Shown one piece after another: positions 11,065-53,454 of a DNA stretch of 64,000 nt. The first letter of the stretch is position 1; each line of letters starts with the position of its first letter. Origin of the DNA: Escherichia coli (GTDB taxonomy: Bacteria; Pseudomonadota; Gammaproteobacteria; Enterobacterales; Enterobacteriaceae); NCBI RefSeq assembly GCF_044324875.1, contig NZ_CP172185.1; one strand, written 5' to 3'. A model generated the notes under the pieces. The model had not been told where the DNA came from. It searched no databases and saw only the letters and a list, made by a program, of their open reading frames with translations. Position numbers and translations under genes: made by a program.

Positions 11065-11378
11065 AACAGTCAATTGTCTCACTGGCGCAAGTCATTCGTT
11101 CGAAAAATGCCGGACCTTACGAACTGGTTTTAGATATTTTATTTAAAACCAAAGAAAACTATGAGCGAGTTAAATCATCAGGGCAATTAACCCCAGAACT
11201 GATTGCGCGCTTATATCATGTTGAACCTGACTTTATTCATCGTATTGTCTGGTTTGATCCTTCTAACGCAGTAAAAATCGTCATGCCACGAGATATTATC
11301 TCCGGGAATGTAGGTGACAATGATGTCTATGGTGCACAGCAACATGCACCTTTATTAAATATGAGTTTCGATTTGTAA
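11061..11378 (+). CDS. small conserved protein, 105 aa, probable partner of the AtuA-like protein (DUF4387-type by recollection)
   Basis: Start overlaps the stop of the preceding ORF (ATGA), indicating translational coupling. Confidence 0.45.
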   Translation: MKQSIVSLAQVIRSKNAGPYELVLDILFKTKENYERVKSSGQLTPELIARLYHVEPDFIHRIVWFDPSNAVKIVMPRDIISGNVGDNDVYGAQQHAPLLNMSFDL

Positions 11379-11461
11379 AAATCCGAATACTTTTAGCCAA
11401 CTGACATCCCGTCACTTATTGCAGTTCAACACTTCAGCTATTTGTAAGGTTGTAATAGCAG

Positions 11462-11512
11462 GTAGATGCCTGAATCTCTATTCAGACATCTACTTCTCCT
11501 GATTCTGATTTA
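11462..11512 (+). terminator. extended hairpin (14-bp stem, one mismatch) followed by a T-rich tract
   Basis: gtagatgcctgaat-ctct-attcagacatctac followed by ttctcctgattctgattt; sits between the small ORF and the symporter gene. Confidence 0.4.
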
Positions 11513-11538
11513 TCGCCGTGCACCTGATGGAGGAAAAA

Positions 11539-12819
11539 ATGAAGAAAATAAGTTTAACCACGATGATTCTTTTGGCACTGGTACTTGGAATGATTATCGG
11601 CGTAGTGCTCAATAACACTGCTTCACCGGAAACCGCAAAACTCTATGCGCAAGAAATATCGATATTCACGACGATTTTCTTACGACTGATAAAAATGATT
11701 ATCGCTCCGTTAGTGGTCTCTACCCTGGTGGTAGGTATAGCTAAAATGGGCGATGCCAAAGCCCTTGGTCGTATTTTTTCTAAAACACTCTTTTTATTTA
11801 TTTGCGCCTCATTGCTGTCAATTGCCTTAGGCTTGATAACAGTAAATTTCTTCATGCCAGGCACAGGAATTAATTTTGTTGCACACGGAGCCGAAACCAC
11901 CGGAGTGGTCGCGTCAGAACCCTTTACGCTAAAAGTATTTATTTCGCATGCTTTCCCCACCAGCATTGTCGATGCCATGGCGCACAATGAAATTTTGCAA
12001 ATCGTAGTGTTCTCAATTTTCCTCGGCTGTAGCCTGACGGCGATTGGCGAGAAAGGCAGCGCCATCGTTCACGCCTTAGATTCGCTGGCACATGCCATGT
12101 TAAAGCTCACTGGCTACGTCATGCTCTTCGCTCCCCTGACCGTATTCGCCGCTATTTCAGCATTGATTGCTGAACGAGGACTGGCAGTTATGGTGAGCGC
12201 CGGGATCTTTATGGGTGAATTTTATTTCACCATGTTGTTACTTTGGGTGCTGCTTATCGGTCTGGCCATCGTTTATGTCGGCCCCTGCATCAGACGCCTG
12301 ACCCGCGCCCTTTCGGAACCCGCTCTGCTGGCATTTACCACATCCAGTTCTGAAGCGGCTTTTCCGGGAACGCTTGAAAAACTGGAGCAATTTGGCGTTT
12401 CCCCCAAAATTGCCAGCTTTGTCTTACCCATTGGCTACTCATTTAATCTCGTTGGATCAATGGCCTACTGCTCCTTCGCCACAGTTTTCATCGCCCAGGC
12501 CTGCAATATCCATTTATCCATCGGTGAGCAAATCACCATGCTGTTGATCCTGATGTTGACCTCGAAAGGAATGGCTGGCGTACCACGCGCCTCAATGGTG
12601 GTTATCGCCGCCACGCTCAACCAGTTCAATATTCCGGAAGCGGGGCTGATCTTGCTGATGGGCGTTGATCCGTTCCTTGATATGGGGCGTTCCGCGACAA
12701 ACGTCATGAGCAACGCAATGGGCGCTGCGATGGTGAGTCGGTGGGAAGGCGAACATTTCGGCGAGGGTTGTCGGGGTAAAGCATTAAAACCCAATGAATC
12801 GAACGTTGCTCTGCCCTGA
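11539..12819 (+). CDS. dicarboxylate/amino acid:cation symporter (DAACS family, GltP-like); probable glutamate or C4/C5-dicarboxylate carrier
   Basis: Multi-pass hydrophobic protein with DAACS-like sequence; start chosen at the ATG 5 nt after a GGAGG (11529..11533). Confidence 0.75.
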   Translation: MKKISLTTMILLALVLGMIIGVVLNNTASPETAKLYAQEISIFTTIFLRLIKMIIAPLVVSTLVVGIAKMGDAKALGRIFSKTLFLFICASLLSIALGLITVNFFMPGTGINFVAHGAETTGVVASEPFTLKVFISHAFPTSIVDAMAHNEILQIVVFSIFLGCSLTAIGEKGSAIVHALDSLAHAMLKLTGYVMLFAPLTVFAAISALIAERGLAVMVSAGIFMGEFYFTMLLLWVLLIGLAIVYVGPCIRRLTRALSEPALLAFTTSSSEAAFPGTLEKLEQFGVSPKIASFVLPIGYSFNLVGSMAYCSFATVFIAQACNIHLSIGEQITMLLILMLTSKGMAGVPRASMVVIAATLNQFNIPEAGLILLMGVDPFLDMGRSATNVMSNAMGAAMVSRWEGEHFGEGCRGKALKPNESNVALP

Positions 12820-12926: not shown

Positions 12927-14579
12927 ATGTCCAAACCATTTATCTGGCAAGAACCGTTTCTACAAAATAAAGACGGTACAGAATATACATTAATTAGCGA
13001 TCAACATATTACAGTAACGGAATTAGACGGCGAAGAAGTGATAAAAATCGCTCCTGAAGCATTAACGCTGCTTGCCCGGCAGGCATTTTATGAAGCCTCT
13101 TTTTTCTTACGTTCCGCTCATTTGCAACAGGTCGCCAGCATTCTTAACGATCCGCAGGCCAGTAGTAATGATAAATACGTTGCGTTGCAGTTATTACGTA
13201 ATGCTGAAGTCTCAGCAAAAGGGGTATTACCCAACTGTCAGGATACCGGCACCGCAACTATTGTTGCCAGTAAAGGGCAACAGATATGGACGGGAGGTAA
13301 CGACGCTGAAGCCTTAAGCAAAGGCATTTACAGTACTTTCCAGGAAAATAATCTGCGCTTTTCACAAAATGCGCCGCTGGATATGTATACCGAAGTCAAT
13401 ACGCAAACCAATCTCCCGGCGCAGATTGATATCAGCGCTGTCGCTGGTAATGAGTACCATTTTCTCTGTGTTAATAAAGGGGGCGGCTCCGCCAATAAAG
13501 CCGCACTTTATCAGGAAACCAAATCCTTATTGCAACCAGAAAAACTGACCGCATTTTTAATCGAAAAAATGAAATCGCTGGGCACCGCTGCCTGCCCGCC
13601 TTACCACATCGCCTTTGTCGTCGGAGGGCTTTCAGCCGATCAAACCTTAAAAGTTGCCAAGCTGGCCTCTACGAAATATTACGACAATTTGCCCACCAGC
13701 GGAAACGAGCAGGGACAAGCATTCCGTGATATTGAGCTGGAAAAAGTGTTGCTCGAGGTCAGTCAGCAATTTGGTATTGGTGCGCAATTTGGGGGTAAAT
13801 ATTTCGCTCATGATATTCGCGTCATTCGTCTGCCGCGTCACGGTGGCTCTTGCCCGATAGCTATGACGCTCTCCTGTTCTGCCGATCGCAATATCAAAGC
13901 AAAAATTAACAAGCACGGTATCTGGCTGGAAAAACTCGAACACAATCCGGGGCAATATATTCCAGCCTCACTGCGGGAAGAAAATCACGCGCAACATGTA
14001 CAACTGGATCTAAACCGTCCGTTGCGTGACGTGATGCAGGATCTCGCCAGATTACCGGTAGGCACCCGCGTGTCGTTAAGTGGTCCCATCGTAGTGGCAC
14101 GCGATATCGCCCACGCCAAAATAAAAGCGCGGCTGGATAACGCCGAACCGATGCCGGATTACCTGAAGCATCATATTGTCTATTACGCTGGCCCGGCGAA
14201 AACACCGGAGAACATGGCCTGCGGTTCACTGGGTCCAACCACGGGCGGTCGAATGGACGGTTATGTCGATACCTTCCAGGCGGCTGGCGGCAGTCTGGTG
14301 ATGTTATCGAAAGGTAACCGCAGCCAGCAGGTCACCGATGCCTGTCACAAACATGGTGGCTTCAATCTGGGTAGTATTGGCGGTGCAGCTGCGTTACTGG
14401 CGCAAGAATATGTCAAAAGTCTGCGTTGCCTGGAATACCCGGAGCTGGGTATGGAAGCGGTGTGGATGATGGAAGTGGAAAATCTGCCCGCATTCATCCT
14501 GGTAGATGATAAAGGCAATAATTTCTTTAGTCAGTTTGAGCAGCAACACCGCTGCGCCAGTTGCCCTGCGGGACATTAA
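12927..14579 (+). CDS. fumD: class I fumarate hydratase family protein (FumA/FumB paralog); probable mesaconase (2-methylfumarate hydratase)
   Basis: 550 aa, collinear high similarity to E. coli FumA (...[11 protein letters not shown]..., ...[13 protein letters not shown]..., ...[13 protein letters not shown]...); location in a methylaspartate-pathway cluster; the fumD name is recalled from E. coli O157:H7 work. Confidence 0.8.
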
Positions 14580-14588
14580 GGAAAATGA

Positions 14589-15191
14589 ATGGAAGCGCGA
14601 ATTTCAACTGAACGGCATGTGCAGCGCCAGCAGAAATTGAAGGAACAGGTCGATACGCGCATCGCGGCGGCGATAGAGAAAAAAGGGATTTTGATTGTTT
14701 TCACCGGCAATGGCAAAGGGAAATCCACTGCCGCGTTTGGTACTGTGACGCGCGCGGTGGGTCATGGCAAAACGGTGGGGGTTGCGCAGTACATCAAGGG
14801 GCAATGGGACAACGGCGAATACAACCTTCTCCAGCCGCTGGGGGTTGAGTTTCATATTATGGGAACCGGTTTTACCTGGGAGACACAGAACCGGCAAGCG
14901 GATATCGACGCGGCGAAAGAGGTCTGGTCGGAAAGCAAACGGATGCTGGCTGACAAGCGTTACGACTTAGTGGTGCTTGATGAGCTGACCTATATGCTGG
15001 CTTACCATTATCTGGATACCGAAGAAGTGATCGCTTCTCTGCAAAACCGCCCGGCACAACAAAGTGTCATTGTCACCGGACGCGGTTGCCACAGTCAGAT
15101 ATTAAAAATGGCGGATACGGTCAGCGAAATCCGCCCCGTCAAACATGCTTTTGATAACGGCATTCAGGCCCAGCCGGGTATCGACTGGTAA
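14589..15191 (+). CDS. cob(I)yrinic acid a,c-diamide / cob(I)alamin adenosyltransferase (BtuR/CobA/CobO family)
   Basis: ...GILIVFTGNGKGKSTAAFG...GHGKTVGVAQYIKG...VVLDELTYM...VIVTGRGC...SEIRPVKHAF... is near-collinear with E. coli BtuR. Confidence 0.85.
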   Translation: MEARISTERHVQRQQKLKEQVDTRIAAAIEKKGILIVFTGNGKGKSTAAFGTVTRAVGHGKTVGVAQYIKGQWDNGEYNLLQPLGVEFHIMGTGFTWETQNRQADIDAAKEVWSESKRMLADKRYDLVVLDELTYMLAYHYLDTEEVIASLQNRPAQQSVIVTGRGCHSQILKMADTVSEIRPVKHAFDNGIQAQPGIDW

Positions 15192-15194
15192 TAA

Positions 15195-15226
15195 CTGCGC
15201 CTGGCATCCCGCCAGGCGCAGGTTTT
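15195..15226. terminator. convergent (bidirectional) intrinsic terminator between the adenosyltransferase gene and the LysR gene
   Basis: ctgcgcctggc-atccc-gccaggcgcag followed by gtttta on the + strand; both stop codons abut the hairpin. Confidence 0.6.
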
Positions 15227-16130
15227 ACATCTCCTGCGGTACAACCGATTTCGCCAGCAACCATTCACGAAATTGCTGCAAGTGCGGTGAGTCAGACTTC
15301 TCTTCCTGCCACGTCATAATAAAACGATTACCGGTACGAATAGGCACATCACAGGGGATCACCATATCGCCACTATCCAAATCATGTTGAATAGCGAAAC
15401 GTGGTAACAGCGCCACGCCGAGATTAGAGCGCACGGCGGCAATCAGCATTGAAAGCAAATCGAAACGTGGTCCGTTGTTGACCAGCGGACTGCTAACGCC
15501 AGATAAGGCAAACCACTCTTCCCAGCCAGTAATACGGGTACTTTGATGCAGAAGTGGTAACTCTGTAAGCAGTTCTGCCACTGACAGTTTTTGATCGGAC
15601 ATTGCAAGCAAACTGCCGCTGCATACCGGCAAAATCTCCTCATCAAAGAGATATTCTACTTCCGCCCAGGGCGCGCAAAAATTTTCGCGCATAATGACAG
15701 CATCGTACTCCCGATTAAGAAAATCGCCGTTATTAGCTAAAGAGTGAATATTAACAATAATATCGGGATGTAACTTTGTGAATTCATGTAAATTTGGGAT
15801 TAACCAGTGGGTACTAAACGTAGGATTCACGGCAAGTTCAATAACCTGAACCGTAGGCTGCCAGGTCATAATGGTATTGGTATCGCGTTCCAGCTTATTT
15901 AATGTTTCTTTTACTATCCCCAGGTAATACTTCCCTGCATCATTAAGAAAAATACGTTTTTTAGAGTGTGAAAATAACGGAGTATGTAAAAATTCCTCCA
16001 GCGCACTCACTTGTCTGAATACTGCACTTTGGGTCAACGCTAACTCCTCTGCCGCTTTGGTATAACTTTCATGACGTGCGACGACCTCAAAAGTCACCAG
16101 CAGCTCCGTTTTAGGTATTTTTCCTCGCAT
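15225..16130 (-). CDS. LysR-family transcriptional regulator
   Basis: N-terminal HTH (...FEVVARHESYTKAAEELALTQSAVFRQVSALEEFL...) and typical about 300-aa length. Confidence 0.85.
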   Translation of the reverse strand: MRGKIPKTELLVTFEVVARHESYTKAAEELALTQSAVFRQVSALEEFLHTPLFSHSKKRIFLNDAGKYYLGIVKETLNKLERDTNTIMTWQPTVQVIELAVNPTFSTHWLIPNLHEFTKLHPDIIVNIHSLANNGDFLNREYDAVIMRENFCAPWAEVEYLFDEEILPVCSGSLLAMSDQKLSVAELLTELPLLHQSTRITGWEEWFALSGVSSPLVNNGPRFDLLSMLIAAVRSNLGVALLPRFAIQHDLDSGDMVIPCDVPIRTGNRFIMTWQEEKSDSPHLQQFREWLLAKSVVPQEM

Positions 16131-40644: not shown

Positions 40645-40685
40645 CAGGCCAGCACCATGCCTGATAAAACGCTCGCTGCGTTTTA

Positions 40686-42104
40686 TCAGGCTCCTTTCCT
40701 CGCTTCTTCGTACGCTGCCAGCGTTCGCAGCCTTGCCTCTTTATGATCAACTATCGGTTGCGGATAATCCAGCGTCACACCTGATTTATCTGCCCACTTC
40801 CACGGCTCATGCACCACTTTCCCTGGCACATCGCGCAGTTCCGGTAGCCACTGGCGGATAAACTCGCCTTCGCGGTCAAATTTCTCGCCCTGGGTTGTCG
40901 GGTTAAAAATACGAAAATACGGCGCTGCATCGGTTCCGGTTGAAGCGGCCCACTGCCAGCCACCGTTATTAGCTGCCAAATCACCATCAATCAGCTGCGA
41001 CATGAAATATCGCTCGCCTTCGCGCCAGTCGATCAACAAATCTTTCACCAGAAAACTGGCTGTAATCATCCGTAGCCTGTTATGCATCCAGCCAGTGCTG
41101 TTAAGCTGACGCATGGCAGCATCGACAATCGGGTATCCCGTTTTGCCTTCCTGCCAGGCCTGTAAATGTGCGGGATTGCTCTGCCACTGCACACGATCCG
41201 TCCAGGCAATAAACGGACAATGTTTACACAACGAGGGGTAATACGTCATCAGATGACGGTAGAACTCGCGCCAGATCAGCTCACTAAGCCAGACACTACC
41301 GGCCCCACCGTCCAGCGCCTGCGGCTGTTCCGCCAACAAGCGATGCAAACACTGGCGAGGCGATAACCCGCCCGTTGCCAGGCTGGCGGACAAACGACTG
41401 GTGCCTTCCACTGCCGGAAAATCTCGTTGTTGCTCATATTCTCCGGCACCGTTCTGGCAAAACTGGCGTAATTGCGCAATCGCAGCTTTTTCTTCCACCG
41501 GGAAATGCGCAGTATCGAAAGGCTGACGAGGATAATTCAGCGTAATGGATGGCGCGGGAGCTATCGATCCGCTACTACGTACTTTTGGCGCAGCGACGCA
41601 CTCCGGCATCCCTTCTCGCAGCCGTTTCAGCCAGGCGTTTTTAAATGGCGTAAAAACTTTGTACATCTCATGATTGCCAGTCATCACCGCCCCCGGCGGC
41701 AGGATCACGCTGTCATCAAATCCTTCACACACCACGTTACGCAGCGTTCTCTCAACCTGCACATCCCGCGCCCGCTCATTCACCTCATACTGATAGTTAT
41801 AAAAAAGATGAGTAACGCGGTTTTCCGCGCACACCTGATTAACTGTTTCGACACTGGCGGCAAAGTCATCCACTTCACGGAACAATAAAGGAATACCTTT
41901 TTCTGCCAGTGCTGTTTGTAGCCCGTTCAGTTGCGCATTGATAAATTCAGCCTGACGCGGCGACATATTATGCGCTGCCCACTGGCGCGGTGTGGCTATA
42001 TACAGCGCCAGCACGCGTGCAGACGAATTGCGGCAGGCGGCAGCCAGTGCGAGATTATCGTGCAGACGTAAATCCTGGCGAAACCAGACCAGATGGGTAG
42101 TCAT
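40686..42104 (-). CDS. phr: deoxyribodipyrimidine photolyase
   Basis: MTTHLVWFRQDLRLHDNLALAAACRNSSARVLALYIATP...; start set at MTTHL, overlapping the ybgA stop (ATGA). Confidence 0.93.
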   Translation of the reverse strand: MTTHLVWFRQDLRLHDNLALAAACRNSSARVLALYIATPRQWAAHNMSPRQAEFINAQLNGLQTALAEKGIPLLFREVDDFAASVETVNQVCAENRVTHLFYNYQYEVNERARDVQVERTLRNVVCEGFDDSVILPPGAVMTGNHEMYKVFTPFKNAWLKRLREGMPECVAAPKVRSSGSIAPAPSITLNYPRQPFDTAHFPVEEKAAIAQLRQFCQNGAGEYEQQRDFPAVEGTSRLSASLATGGLSPRQCLHRLLAEQPQALDGGAGSVWLSELIWREFYRHLMTYYPSLCKHCPFIAWTDRVQWQSNPAHLQAWQEGKTGYPIVDAAMRQLNSTGWMHNRLRMITASFLVKDLLIDWREGERYFMSQLIDGDLAANNGGWQWAASTGTDAAPYFRIFNPTTQGEKFDREGEFIRQWLPELRDVPGKVVHEPWKWADKSGVTLDYPQPIVDHKEARLRTLAAYEEARKGA

Positions 42105-44302: not shown

Positions 44303-44337
44303 AAAAAAAAACCGCCAGCGTTTCCGCTGGCGGTTTT
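44303..44337. terminator. bidirectional intrinsic terminator downstream of ybfA
   Basis: A9-ccgccagcg-tttc-cgctggcgg-TTTT: perfect 9-bp stem flanked by A-run and T-run. Confidence 0.7.
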
Positions 44338-44359
44338 CAATGTATTCAGAACTCAGCAA

Positions 44360-53400: not shown

Positions 53401-53454
53401 GTCATAAGTAAAAAAGGGCGATCTTCCGACCGCCCTTTTTCTTATTTAATGTGT

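Follow-up and report, generated by a model that had tools for sequence, protein, structure and literature searches.

Hairpins that lie between cistrons and set the stability of part of a message are well known, among them the REP hairpins of malE-malF in Escherichia coli and the hairpins of puf in Rhodobacter capsulatus and papBA in E. coli, all of which are intercistronic mRNA stability elements. ERIC elements in intercistronic regions have likewise been reported to modulate the stability of flanking mRNA segments. Here we describe a hairpin in a 64,000-nucleotide (nt) stretch of an E. coli genome (assembly GCF_044324875.1, contig NZ_CP172185.1), called the window below. The hairpin, H2, lies on the plus strand at 11460-11495, in the untranslated gap that separates enzyme genes from the transporter gene in an operon for glutamate fermentation, and it is an undescribed element of a kind already known. 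Comparison across several genera shows its stem to be kept, as judged from covariation, by selection on pairing, as a plus-strand RNA structure.

The likeness to the REP/BIME elements of malE-malF is that of a stable stem-loop without a U-tract, in an untranslated gap within an operon and after cistrons expected to be the more abundant; here too the structure would be expected to block 3'-to-5' exonucleases and to leave the upstream and downstream segments at different levels. Unlike REP/BIME, however, the hairpin is single-copy and without the REP consensus, and it is conserved orthologously, with compensatory changes, rather than spread as a repeat. With the puf and papBA hairpins it shares the character of a unique, locus-specific intercistronic hairpin, which in those systems gives segmental stability and a fixed product stoichiometry, but there half-lives have been measured and ends mapped, whereas the present one has been recognized by sequence comparison and belongs to an unrelated operon. 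ERIC elements also form hairpins and are transcribed within enterobacterial operons, and ERIC-like copies are inserted in the same gap in Citrobacter amalonaticus S646 (~3450-3590) and Klebsiella oxytoca (~3320-3520), but ERIC is a multi-copy repeat of ~127 bp and H2 a unique hairpin of 36 nt. In C. amalonaticus S646 the ERIC-like insertion lies downstream and the conserved hairpin has decayed (folding z-score -0.3).

The evidence for H2 comes from RNAfold, covariation, allele counts and a covariance model. Its arms, at 11462-11475 (GTAGATGCCTGAAT) and 11480-11493 (ATTCAGACATCTAC), are 14 nt each and 93% complementary, enclosing a 4-nt loop, CTCT, at 11476-11479, and the only mismatch in the stem of the window allele is C11469·A11486. 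An earlier reading of the window made from its letters alone (the sequence-only reading) had described just such a 14-bp stem with one mismatch; it had also correctly set the hairpin after the glutamate-mutase enzyme genes and before the symporter gene, and its distances and placing, from the small open reading frame (ORF) upstream to the hairpin and on to the symporter ribosome-binding site, were right. That ORF is the DUF4387 gene, the stop codon of which ends 83 nt before the stem. The folding calculation proposed in the same reading gives -16.5 kcal/mol for a 40-nt segment of the window allele (z -4.75), with none of 200 shuffles folding as well, and the E. coli consensus stem reaches -23.7 kcal/mol (z -7.29). 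RNAfold lengthens the stem by two closing pairs, G11461·U11494 and A11460-U11495, to a 16-bp duplex in E. coli (as many as 17 bp in Citrobacter), with a stem G+C of only 43% in E. coli; the ribosome-binding site of the symporter is not part of it. Since the fold of a 91-nt context has a z of only -1.5, the signal is that of the hairpin itself and not of a larger fold. The window has three loci with a hairpin of this kind (14-bp stem, no more than one mismatch), where Markov-shuffled sequence would lead one to expect 0.17.

A DUF4387 protein profile yielded 80 loci from species-representative genomes, and the symporter gene directly follows the DUF4387 gene in all Enterobacterales loci but those of two Escherichia species. 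The gap between the two genes is ~160-170 nt in Citrobacter, Klebsiella, Enterobacter, Lelliottia, Pluralibacter, Raoultella, Buttiauxella and Salmonella enterica subsp. arizonae/diarizonae, and in these genera it holds a long hairpin at the same position, 39-47 nt before the symporter ATG. Among 33 intergenic regions (IGRs, from the DUF4387 stop to the symporter start) of at least eight genera, the E. coli hairpin falls in register with the orthologous ones while the arm sequences differ: at least seven paired arm positions differ between E. coli and Citrobacter with complementarity kept, orthologous arms read, for example, GGCGTGCGTCTGAGC...GCTCAGGCGCACGCC, and only a core, CCTGA/TCAGG, is held in common. 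The loop varies in both length and sequence, and an intermediate form in Escherichia sp. MOD1-EC7003 has a Citrobacter-like arm and CCCTAC alongside an E. coli-like CTGATTTATCGC. When the regions were aligned independently with MAFFT, 13 of the 15 pairs had changed on both sides and 93.3% of cells were paired, compared with 26-51% when the partners were slid; none of 500 shuffles reached the covariation score, and an unguided RNAalifold prediction returned the same helix. A covariance-model alignment of 42 distinct sequences, extended to E. albertii, K. oxytoca, an Aeromonas and three metagenomic contigs, gave 94.2% paired (22-48% slid) and 83 cells changed on both sides, again in 13 of 15 pairs. 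Several paired columns contain three or four pair types, and the changes are therefore not a single inherited event. The hairpin is also the sole full match to the covariance model in the window (42.4 bits, E 1.4e-7). Reading frames over the hairpin were rejected, namely two small ORFs (11466-11615, plus strand; 11490-11618, minus strand), because arms and loop vary in length in the alignment, and an ATG-started frame in the Citrobacter IGR, for the same reason and because its ATG is not conserved.

The nature of the tolerated changes points to the molecule on which selection acts. Read as plus-strand RNA, the aligned genera show 51 G·U cells against 14 A·C cells, and within E. coli changes of the G·U type occur in 443 records and those of the A·C type in 17. 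Changes of the G·U type would do a DNA palindrome or a minus-strand RNA as much harm or more, and what selection acts on is therefore the plus-strand operon mRNA. Among 1124 E. coli records, counted as exact matches of a 60-nt segment, 610 have a perfect Watson-Crick stem, 316 carry A11484G (a U·G wobble), 96 carry A11466G (a G·U wobble), 31 combine the U·G wobble with the loop TTTT, 17 carry T11491C (an A·C mismatch) and 54 have other alleles, such that at least 94% retain every pair as plus-strand RNA and both common polymorphisms are of the G·U-keeping kind. In E. albertii a G-C pair replaces the E. coli pair A11464-U11491, and the 17-record allele corresponds to the 3' half of that change only. 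The window allele occurs in none of the records. Six E. coli orthologues and the closest contig (JAIJJM010000101.1) have G at the position of A11486, which makes the stem perfect, and A11486 is either a private mutation of the window strain or a sequencing error. That contig is labelled as a metagenome-assembled genome of Collinsella sp., yet its DUF4387 and symporter proteins are 100% identical to those of the window, and it has almost certainly been mis-binned from E. coli. The freedom of loop and arm sequence, together with the absence from E. coli of the flanks conserved elsewhere, fits a structural role and not sequence-specific recognition.

We suggest that the hairpin may be a structure-only segmental mRNA barrier that uncouples the levels of the enzyme and transporter transcripts, a proposal that we favour while giving it slightly less than an even chance. 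Transcripts would suffer cleavage or Rho termination, either in the unprotected gap or farther downstream; 3'-to-5' exonucleases would then trim them back to the base of the stem, and the enzyme-coding segment would outlive and outnumber the transporter-coding segment. In a mirror-image version, the hairpin would guard the 5' end of a processed downstream segment. What is found at the locus is what a decay barrier calls for, a stable stem-loop in an untranslated gap in which pairing, and not sequence, is selected. The sequence-only reading had suggested that the hairpin could set the ratio of enzyme to transporter transcripts; the idea of a separator still gives the best reading, with a stem selected on the coding strand, and the barrier mechanism and its effect on the ratio are the parts of it that we infer.

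Several points weigh against this proposal. Literature searches, with papers on transcription start sites and Term-seq in enterohaemorrhagic E. coli included, yielded no 3'-end, 5'-end or half-life data for the locus, and the supplements of PMC10469882 have no entry for it by name or by sequence. In strain EDL933 the genes Z0886-Z0895 are nearly silent, at 0-3 reads per kilobase per million (RPKM) in 11 conditions (Landstorfer et al., 2014; PMC4048457 supplement). The window's own allele weakens the stem by ~7 kcal/mol, and one C. amalonaticus strain is without the hairpin, which is thus dispensable at least sometimes. A Rho-loading region is only moderately supported in E. coli, with C 18 and G 7 in 11380-11439 and C 10 and G 6 in the 3' flank. 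Outside Escherichia, moreover, the hairpin stands at a fixed 39-47 nt from the ATG, amid conserved unpaired blocks and a covarying upstream helix, and this fixed spacing, with the conserved flanks and second helix, hints at a more specific regulatory role there. In favour of the proposal, the same expression supplement gives Z0890, the DUF4387 gene, 18 and 12 RPKM in two conditions and Z0891 and Z0888 (the symporter gene) 0-1, on very few reads, a weak hint that agrees with a transcript boundary in the gap; the LysR-type regulator Z0885 stands at 113 RPKM in the reference condition (PMC4048457).

Stem-loops also follow the DUF4387 gene in lineages where they are not homologous to H2 and go unrecognized by the covariance model: E. 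fergusonii, E. marmotae, E. whittamii, Yersinia, Morganella, Pseudescherichia and Yokenella. In E. fergusonii the hairpin has 12 bp (CCTGACGTTAAG..CTTAACGTCAGG) and lies 9 nt beyond the DUF4387 stop; in Yersinia CGGTGCAT..ATGCACCG is followed by up to six T in a run; in Morganella the hairpin reaches 17 bp, with arms that differ between two species; and Pseudescherichia and Yokenella each have a hairpin of their own. In E. marmotae, E. whittamii and Escherichia sp. E1V33 the symporter gene is missing, the DUF4387 gene being followed after ~280 nt by fumD, and the gap contains AAATGTACCTG..CAGGTACATTT (-15.6 kcal/mol, z -5.6). The symporter is therefore subject to a presence/absence polymorphism within the genus, each version of the locus having its own hairpin. 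Outside the Enterobacterales, either the next gene comes immediately after the DUF4387 gene or a textbook terminator does. Because a stem-loop recurs after the enzyme block whatever lies downstream, its role appears to be tied more to the 3' side of the upstream transcript than to the symporter.

The hairpin is not a canonical intrinsic terminator. A scan of the window, in which a terminator must have 5 or more T in a stretch of 8 nt that begins 0-2 nt from the stem, did not call it. Like such terminators it forms its stem-loop on the coding strand, in Escherichia with pyrimidine-rich sequence behind it, and at a site where lowered transcription would make sense physiologically. It differs from them in that the hairpin has no contiguous U-tract, its tail is unconserved and its terminator index is negative, and in a stem of 14-17 bp that is longer and, at its base, more A+U-rich than is typical. 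The stem is stable and its loop short (14-16 bp, 4 nt), as in a terminator, but the U-tract fails in E. coli and in the orthologues alike. The Escherichia tail, TTCTCCTGATTCTGATTT, has its T run broken by C and G, and when read as TTCTCCTG, or as TCTCCTGA beyond the closing pairs, it contains 3 T in 8. The 30 orthologues from outside Escherichia have ACCCTACAC or GCCCTACAC after the stem, where 1-3 (mostly 1) of the first 8 nt are T. That the stem is kept while the tail varies argues that selection maintains the stem and not a U-tract. The tail that the sequence-only reading called T-rich is pyrimidine-rich (T 13, C 10, G 6 and A 4 in the 33 nt of the 3' flank, 11494-11526), but its T run is interrupted and falls short of the 5-in-8 rule, and the tail is confined to Escherichia. 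Readings that join a hairpin to a 'T-rich tail' need such checks in orthologues; in the present case conservation extends to the stem but not to the tail.

A leakier form of termination, in which a fraction of polymerases would stop at the hairpin and its tail and so lower transcription of the transporter block, is the partial terminator or attenuator that the sequence-only reading had in mind, and we consider it unlikely, though not negligible. The stable stem with its 4-nt loop stands, and the Escherichia tail does begin with UU; the non-homologous Yersinia hairpin with its T runs, and the canonical terminators that follow the DUF4387 gene in some Betaproteobacteria, also speak for it. Yet the two U adjoining the stem pair with AG at the stem base and are consumed by the closing pairs, leaving CUCCUGAU, and the stem has been under selection in the 30 non-Escherichia sequences in spite of their poor tails. 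A d'Aubenton-Carafa-type index is negative in all 33 sequences (-22 to -65; -43 for the window allele and -23 for the E. coli consensus) and +2.9 for the terminator after cobO, the real terminator of the operon, which served as positive control. A processing site, the other suggestion of the sequence-only reading, would be compatible with what was observed, and selection on pairing would equally suit a site for RNase III, cleavage of the duplex leaving two halves of the operon mRNA that decay independently. The duplex is long and nearly perfect, and within the stem conservation is highest in the core CCUGA/UCAGG. Efficient E. coli substrates of the enzyme, however, usually have about two helical turns (~20 bp), and at 16-17 bp the present duplex is shorter than is typical, so that we regard this as improbable. 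Least probable of all, and in our view very improbable indeed, is that the symmetry is that of a DNA palindrome, either an operator for a dimeric factor such as the island's LysR-type regulator or a recombination or cruciform site. The consensus of the species does form a perfect inverted repeat of 14 + 14 bp, the minus strand carries a LysR-family gene (15225-16130), and IS1 has been inserted or deleted beside the palindrome in one strain, but between genera it is complementarity that is conserved and not the half-sites, symmetry-breaking changes of the G·U type are common where those of the A·C type are rare, and no adjoining promoter was predicted. The operator palindrome was rejected on this strand asymmetry and lack of half-site conservation.

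The wider gap raises a further possibility, that the symporter gene has a cis-regulatory leader to which the hairpin contributes one helix. This 5' untranslated region would be riboswitch-like, protein-binding or responsive to small RNAs, perhaps with its transcript supplied by an internal promoter, and a larger fold in it would control translation or premature termination of symporter-fumD-cobO. We think this doubtful, though it deserves weight. Outside Escherichia the ~165-nt IGR, that of an Aeromonas included, shows higher conservation (0.76) than the genes on either side do at third codon positions (0.63-0.67), and it contains an upstream helix, H1 (loop GCTGTATCAC; alignment columns 47-55 with 71-79), in which six of nine pairs have changed on both sides. 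Near-invariant unpaired blocks accompany it (GCTGTATCAC, the linker TTCATGCGGTTGGTCACAACAGG, ACCCTACAC and ACCAGCCTTTATCCGATGGAG), the 3' flank is rich in C (11-16) and poor in G (0-4) over ~27-35 nt, and a -10-like hexamer (GATAAT, CATAAT or AATTAT) lies between H1 and the hairpin. The complementary segments GGTTGGT/ACCARCC and TTCAT/ATGAA, the latter including the start codon, are 95% paired, and the Aeromonas IGR pairs GGTTGGT with ACCARCC in its minimum-free-energy fold; Rfam has no family for the region. Against this, neither long-range helix shows a both-sided change or does better than shuffles, the ribosome-binding site lies outside the hairpin, and hairpins follow the DUF4387 gene in symporter-less lineages as well. 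An internal promoter was set aside, as no sigma-70-like site was called on the plus strand of the E. coli or the Citrobacter IGR, although other genera do have the conserved -10-like hexamer. A metagenome scan for the linker motif ATGCGGTTGGTCAYMAC gave 120 matches, of which three were real, all of them in the DUF4387-symporter context and none elsewhere. E. coli retains only the hairpin: its gap is ~44% identical to those of other genera and has in common with them only hairpin, spacing and ribosome-binding site, H1 being lost and the 5' half, linker and 3' flank unconserved. In its place the 5' part of the gap (11379-11459, plus strand) has a C-rich, G-poor, Escherichia-specific sequence where other genera have the covarying H1 and conserved linker. 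A stronger version is somewhat less likely still, namely that the hairpin outside Escherichia is a helix of an undescribed, metabolite-sensing or protein-binding cis-regulatory RNA of ~165 nt, of which the Escherichia hairpin is a degenerate remnant. Such an RNA, with two helices that covary, unpaired blocks without variation and perhaps GGUUGGU/ACCAGCC as a closing helix, would serve as the symporter leader in Citrobacter, Klebsiella, Enterobacter, Salmonella arizonae/diarizonae, Buttiauxella and an Aeromonas. The hairpin of Yersinia may be a homologue of H1. The Aeromonas strain in question, Aeromonas sp. MdU4, has an Enterobacter-type gap with H1, linker and hairpin, which indicates that the gene cluster and its non-coding region moved into it horizontally.

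As a sequence, the hairpin belongs to no family that we could find. It occurs at one place per genome (median) in 1123 E. coli genomes (60-nt BLAST of 5426 genomes), and a pattern search at up to three mismatches returned one match in the window; a repeat family was rejected, as pattern search, BLAST and covariance-model search all gave a single copy. Rfam 15 contains no family matching the E. coli IGR, where the best overlap, with FourU on the minus strand, scored 19.3 bits (gathering score 60; E 0.7), and Rfam gave no match in the Citrobacter, Klebsiella or Yersinia IGRs. The RefSeq annotation has no feature under the hairpin.

The genes on either side belong to an accessory island that, in annotated genomes, lies between cydA and sucD and is carried by 1124 of 5426 complete E. 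coli genomes (~1/5), O157:H7 among them. Its order is glmS-glmL-glmE-mal-atuA-DUF4387 followed, after the gap, by symporter-fumD-cobO, a cluster described previously (Kronen and Berg, 2015; PMC4682846), the product of which is the B12-dependent methylaspartate route of glutamate fermentation. On the plus strand of the window we find glmS (5085/5149-5597), glmL (5597-6985), glmE (7004-8449), the methylaspartate ammonia-lyase gene mal (8449-9690), an AtuA-like gene (9694-11064) and, last in this tightly packed enzyme block, the DUF4387 gene (11061-11378; Pfam PF14330, E 2.6e-39, and RefSeq annotation of the orthologous locus). Genes of the block overlap or are at most 18 nt apart. The gap, 11379-11538, is 160 nt of untranslated sequence between co-oriented genes and the first long untranslated stretch of the operon; downstream of the hairpin it consists of a pyrimidine-rich single-stranded spacer without a canonical U-tract (11496-11528, CTCCTGATTCTGATTTATCGCCGTGCACCTGAT) and the Shine-Dalgarno sequence GGAGG (11529-11533). 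The transporter block opens with the gene for a GltP-like dicarboxylate/amino acid:cation symporter (11539-12819; Pfam PF00375, E 2.2e-102, and annotation), the ATG of which (11539-11541) agrees with the start that RefSeq gives for the orthologue, ATGGAG and the ATG itself being invariant in the 33 IGRs. It is followed by fumD, encoding a mesaconase/fumarase (12927-14579), and cobO (14589-15191), all on the plus strand. After cobO come a GC-rich 11-bp hairpin and GTTTTAC (15195-15221, plus strand), the top match of the terminator scan and the only strong terminator of the operon, and then the convergent gene of the LysR-family regulator at the end of the island. The genes from glmS to cobO probably form a single transcription unit.

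Other features of the region are recorded here for completeness. Upstream of glmS are two orphan ORFs (3153-4097 and 4178-4600; 314 and 140 amino acids), neither of which matched Pfam in a scan for an RNA-binding regulator, and between them and glmS lies an AT-rich stretch of ~550 bp (4600-5148) that may serve as the regulatory region of the operon. The DUF4387 coding sequence contains a 12-bp inverted repeat, TGGTTTTAGATA TTT TATTTAAAACCA (11125-11151). IS1 lies inside the DUF4387 gene in two enterotoxigenic E. coli strains (ETEC4077/4079) and replaces this gene and the 5' arm of the hairpin in E. coli strain 100416 (3249-4000), and in E. coli CFSAN018748 the gene of the LysR-type regulator is annotated as a frameshifted pseudogene (13226-14130). 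Elsewhere in the window are further long hairpins (40659-40691, 44307-44338, 53411-53440 and 58467-58496), among them one REP-like perfect palindrome (GCCTGATAAAACGC..GCGTTTTATCAGGC) and several of A-run/T-run, terminator-like form.

If the wider RNA outside Escherichia were a sensor, it would be a new class of regulatory RNA linked to amino-acid fermentation in gut pathogens. For the operon as a whole, a selected stem at its single untranslated gap marks the likely point at which enzyme and transporter are uncoupled. The hairpin is a small mutational target, of 32-36 nt, for which natural alleles with perfect, wobble and mismatched stems already exist, and the island that bears it is carried not only by O157:H7 but by many opportunistic enterobacteria.

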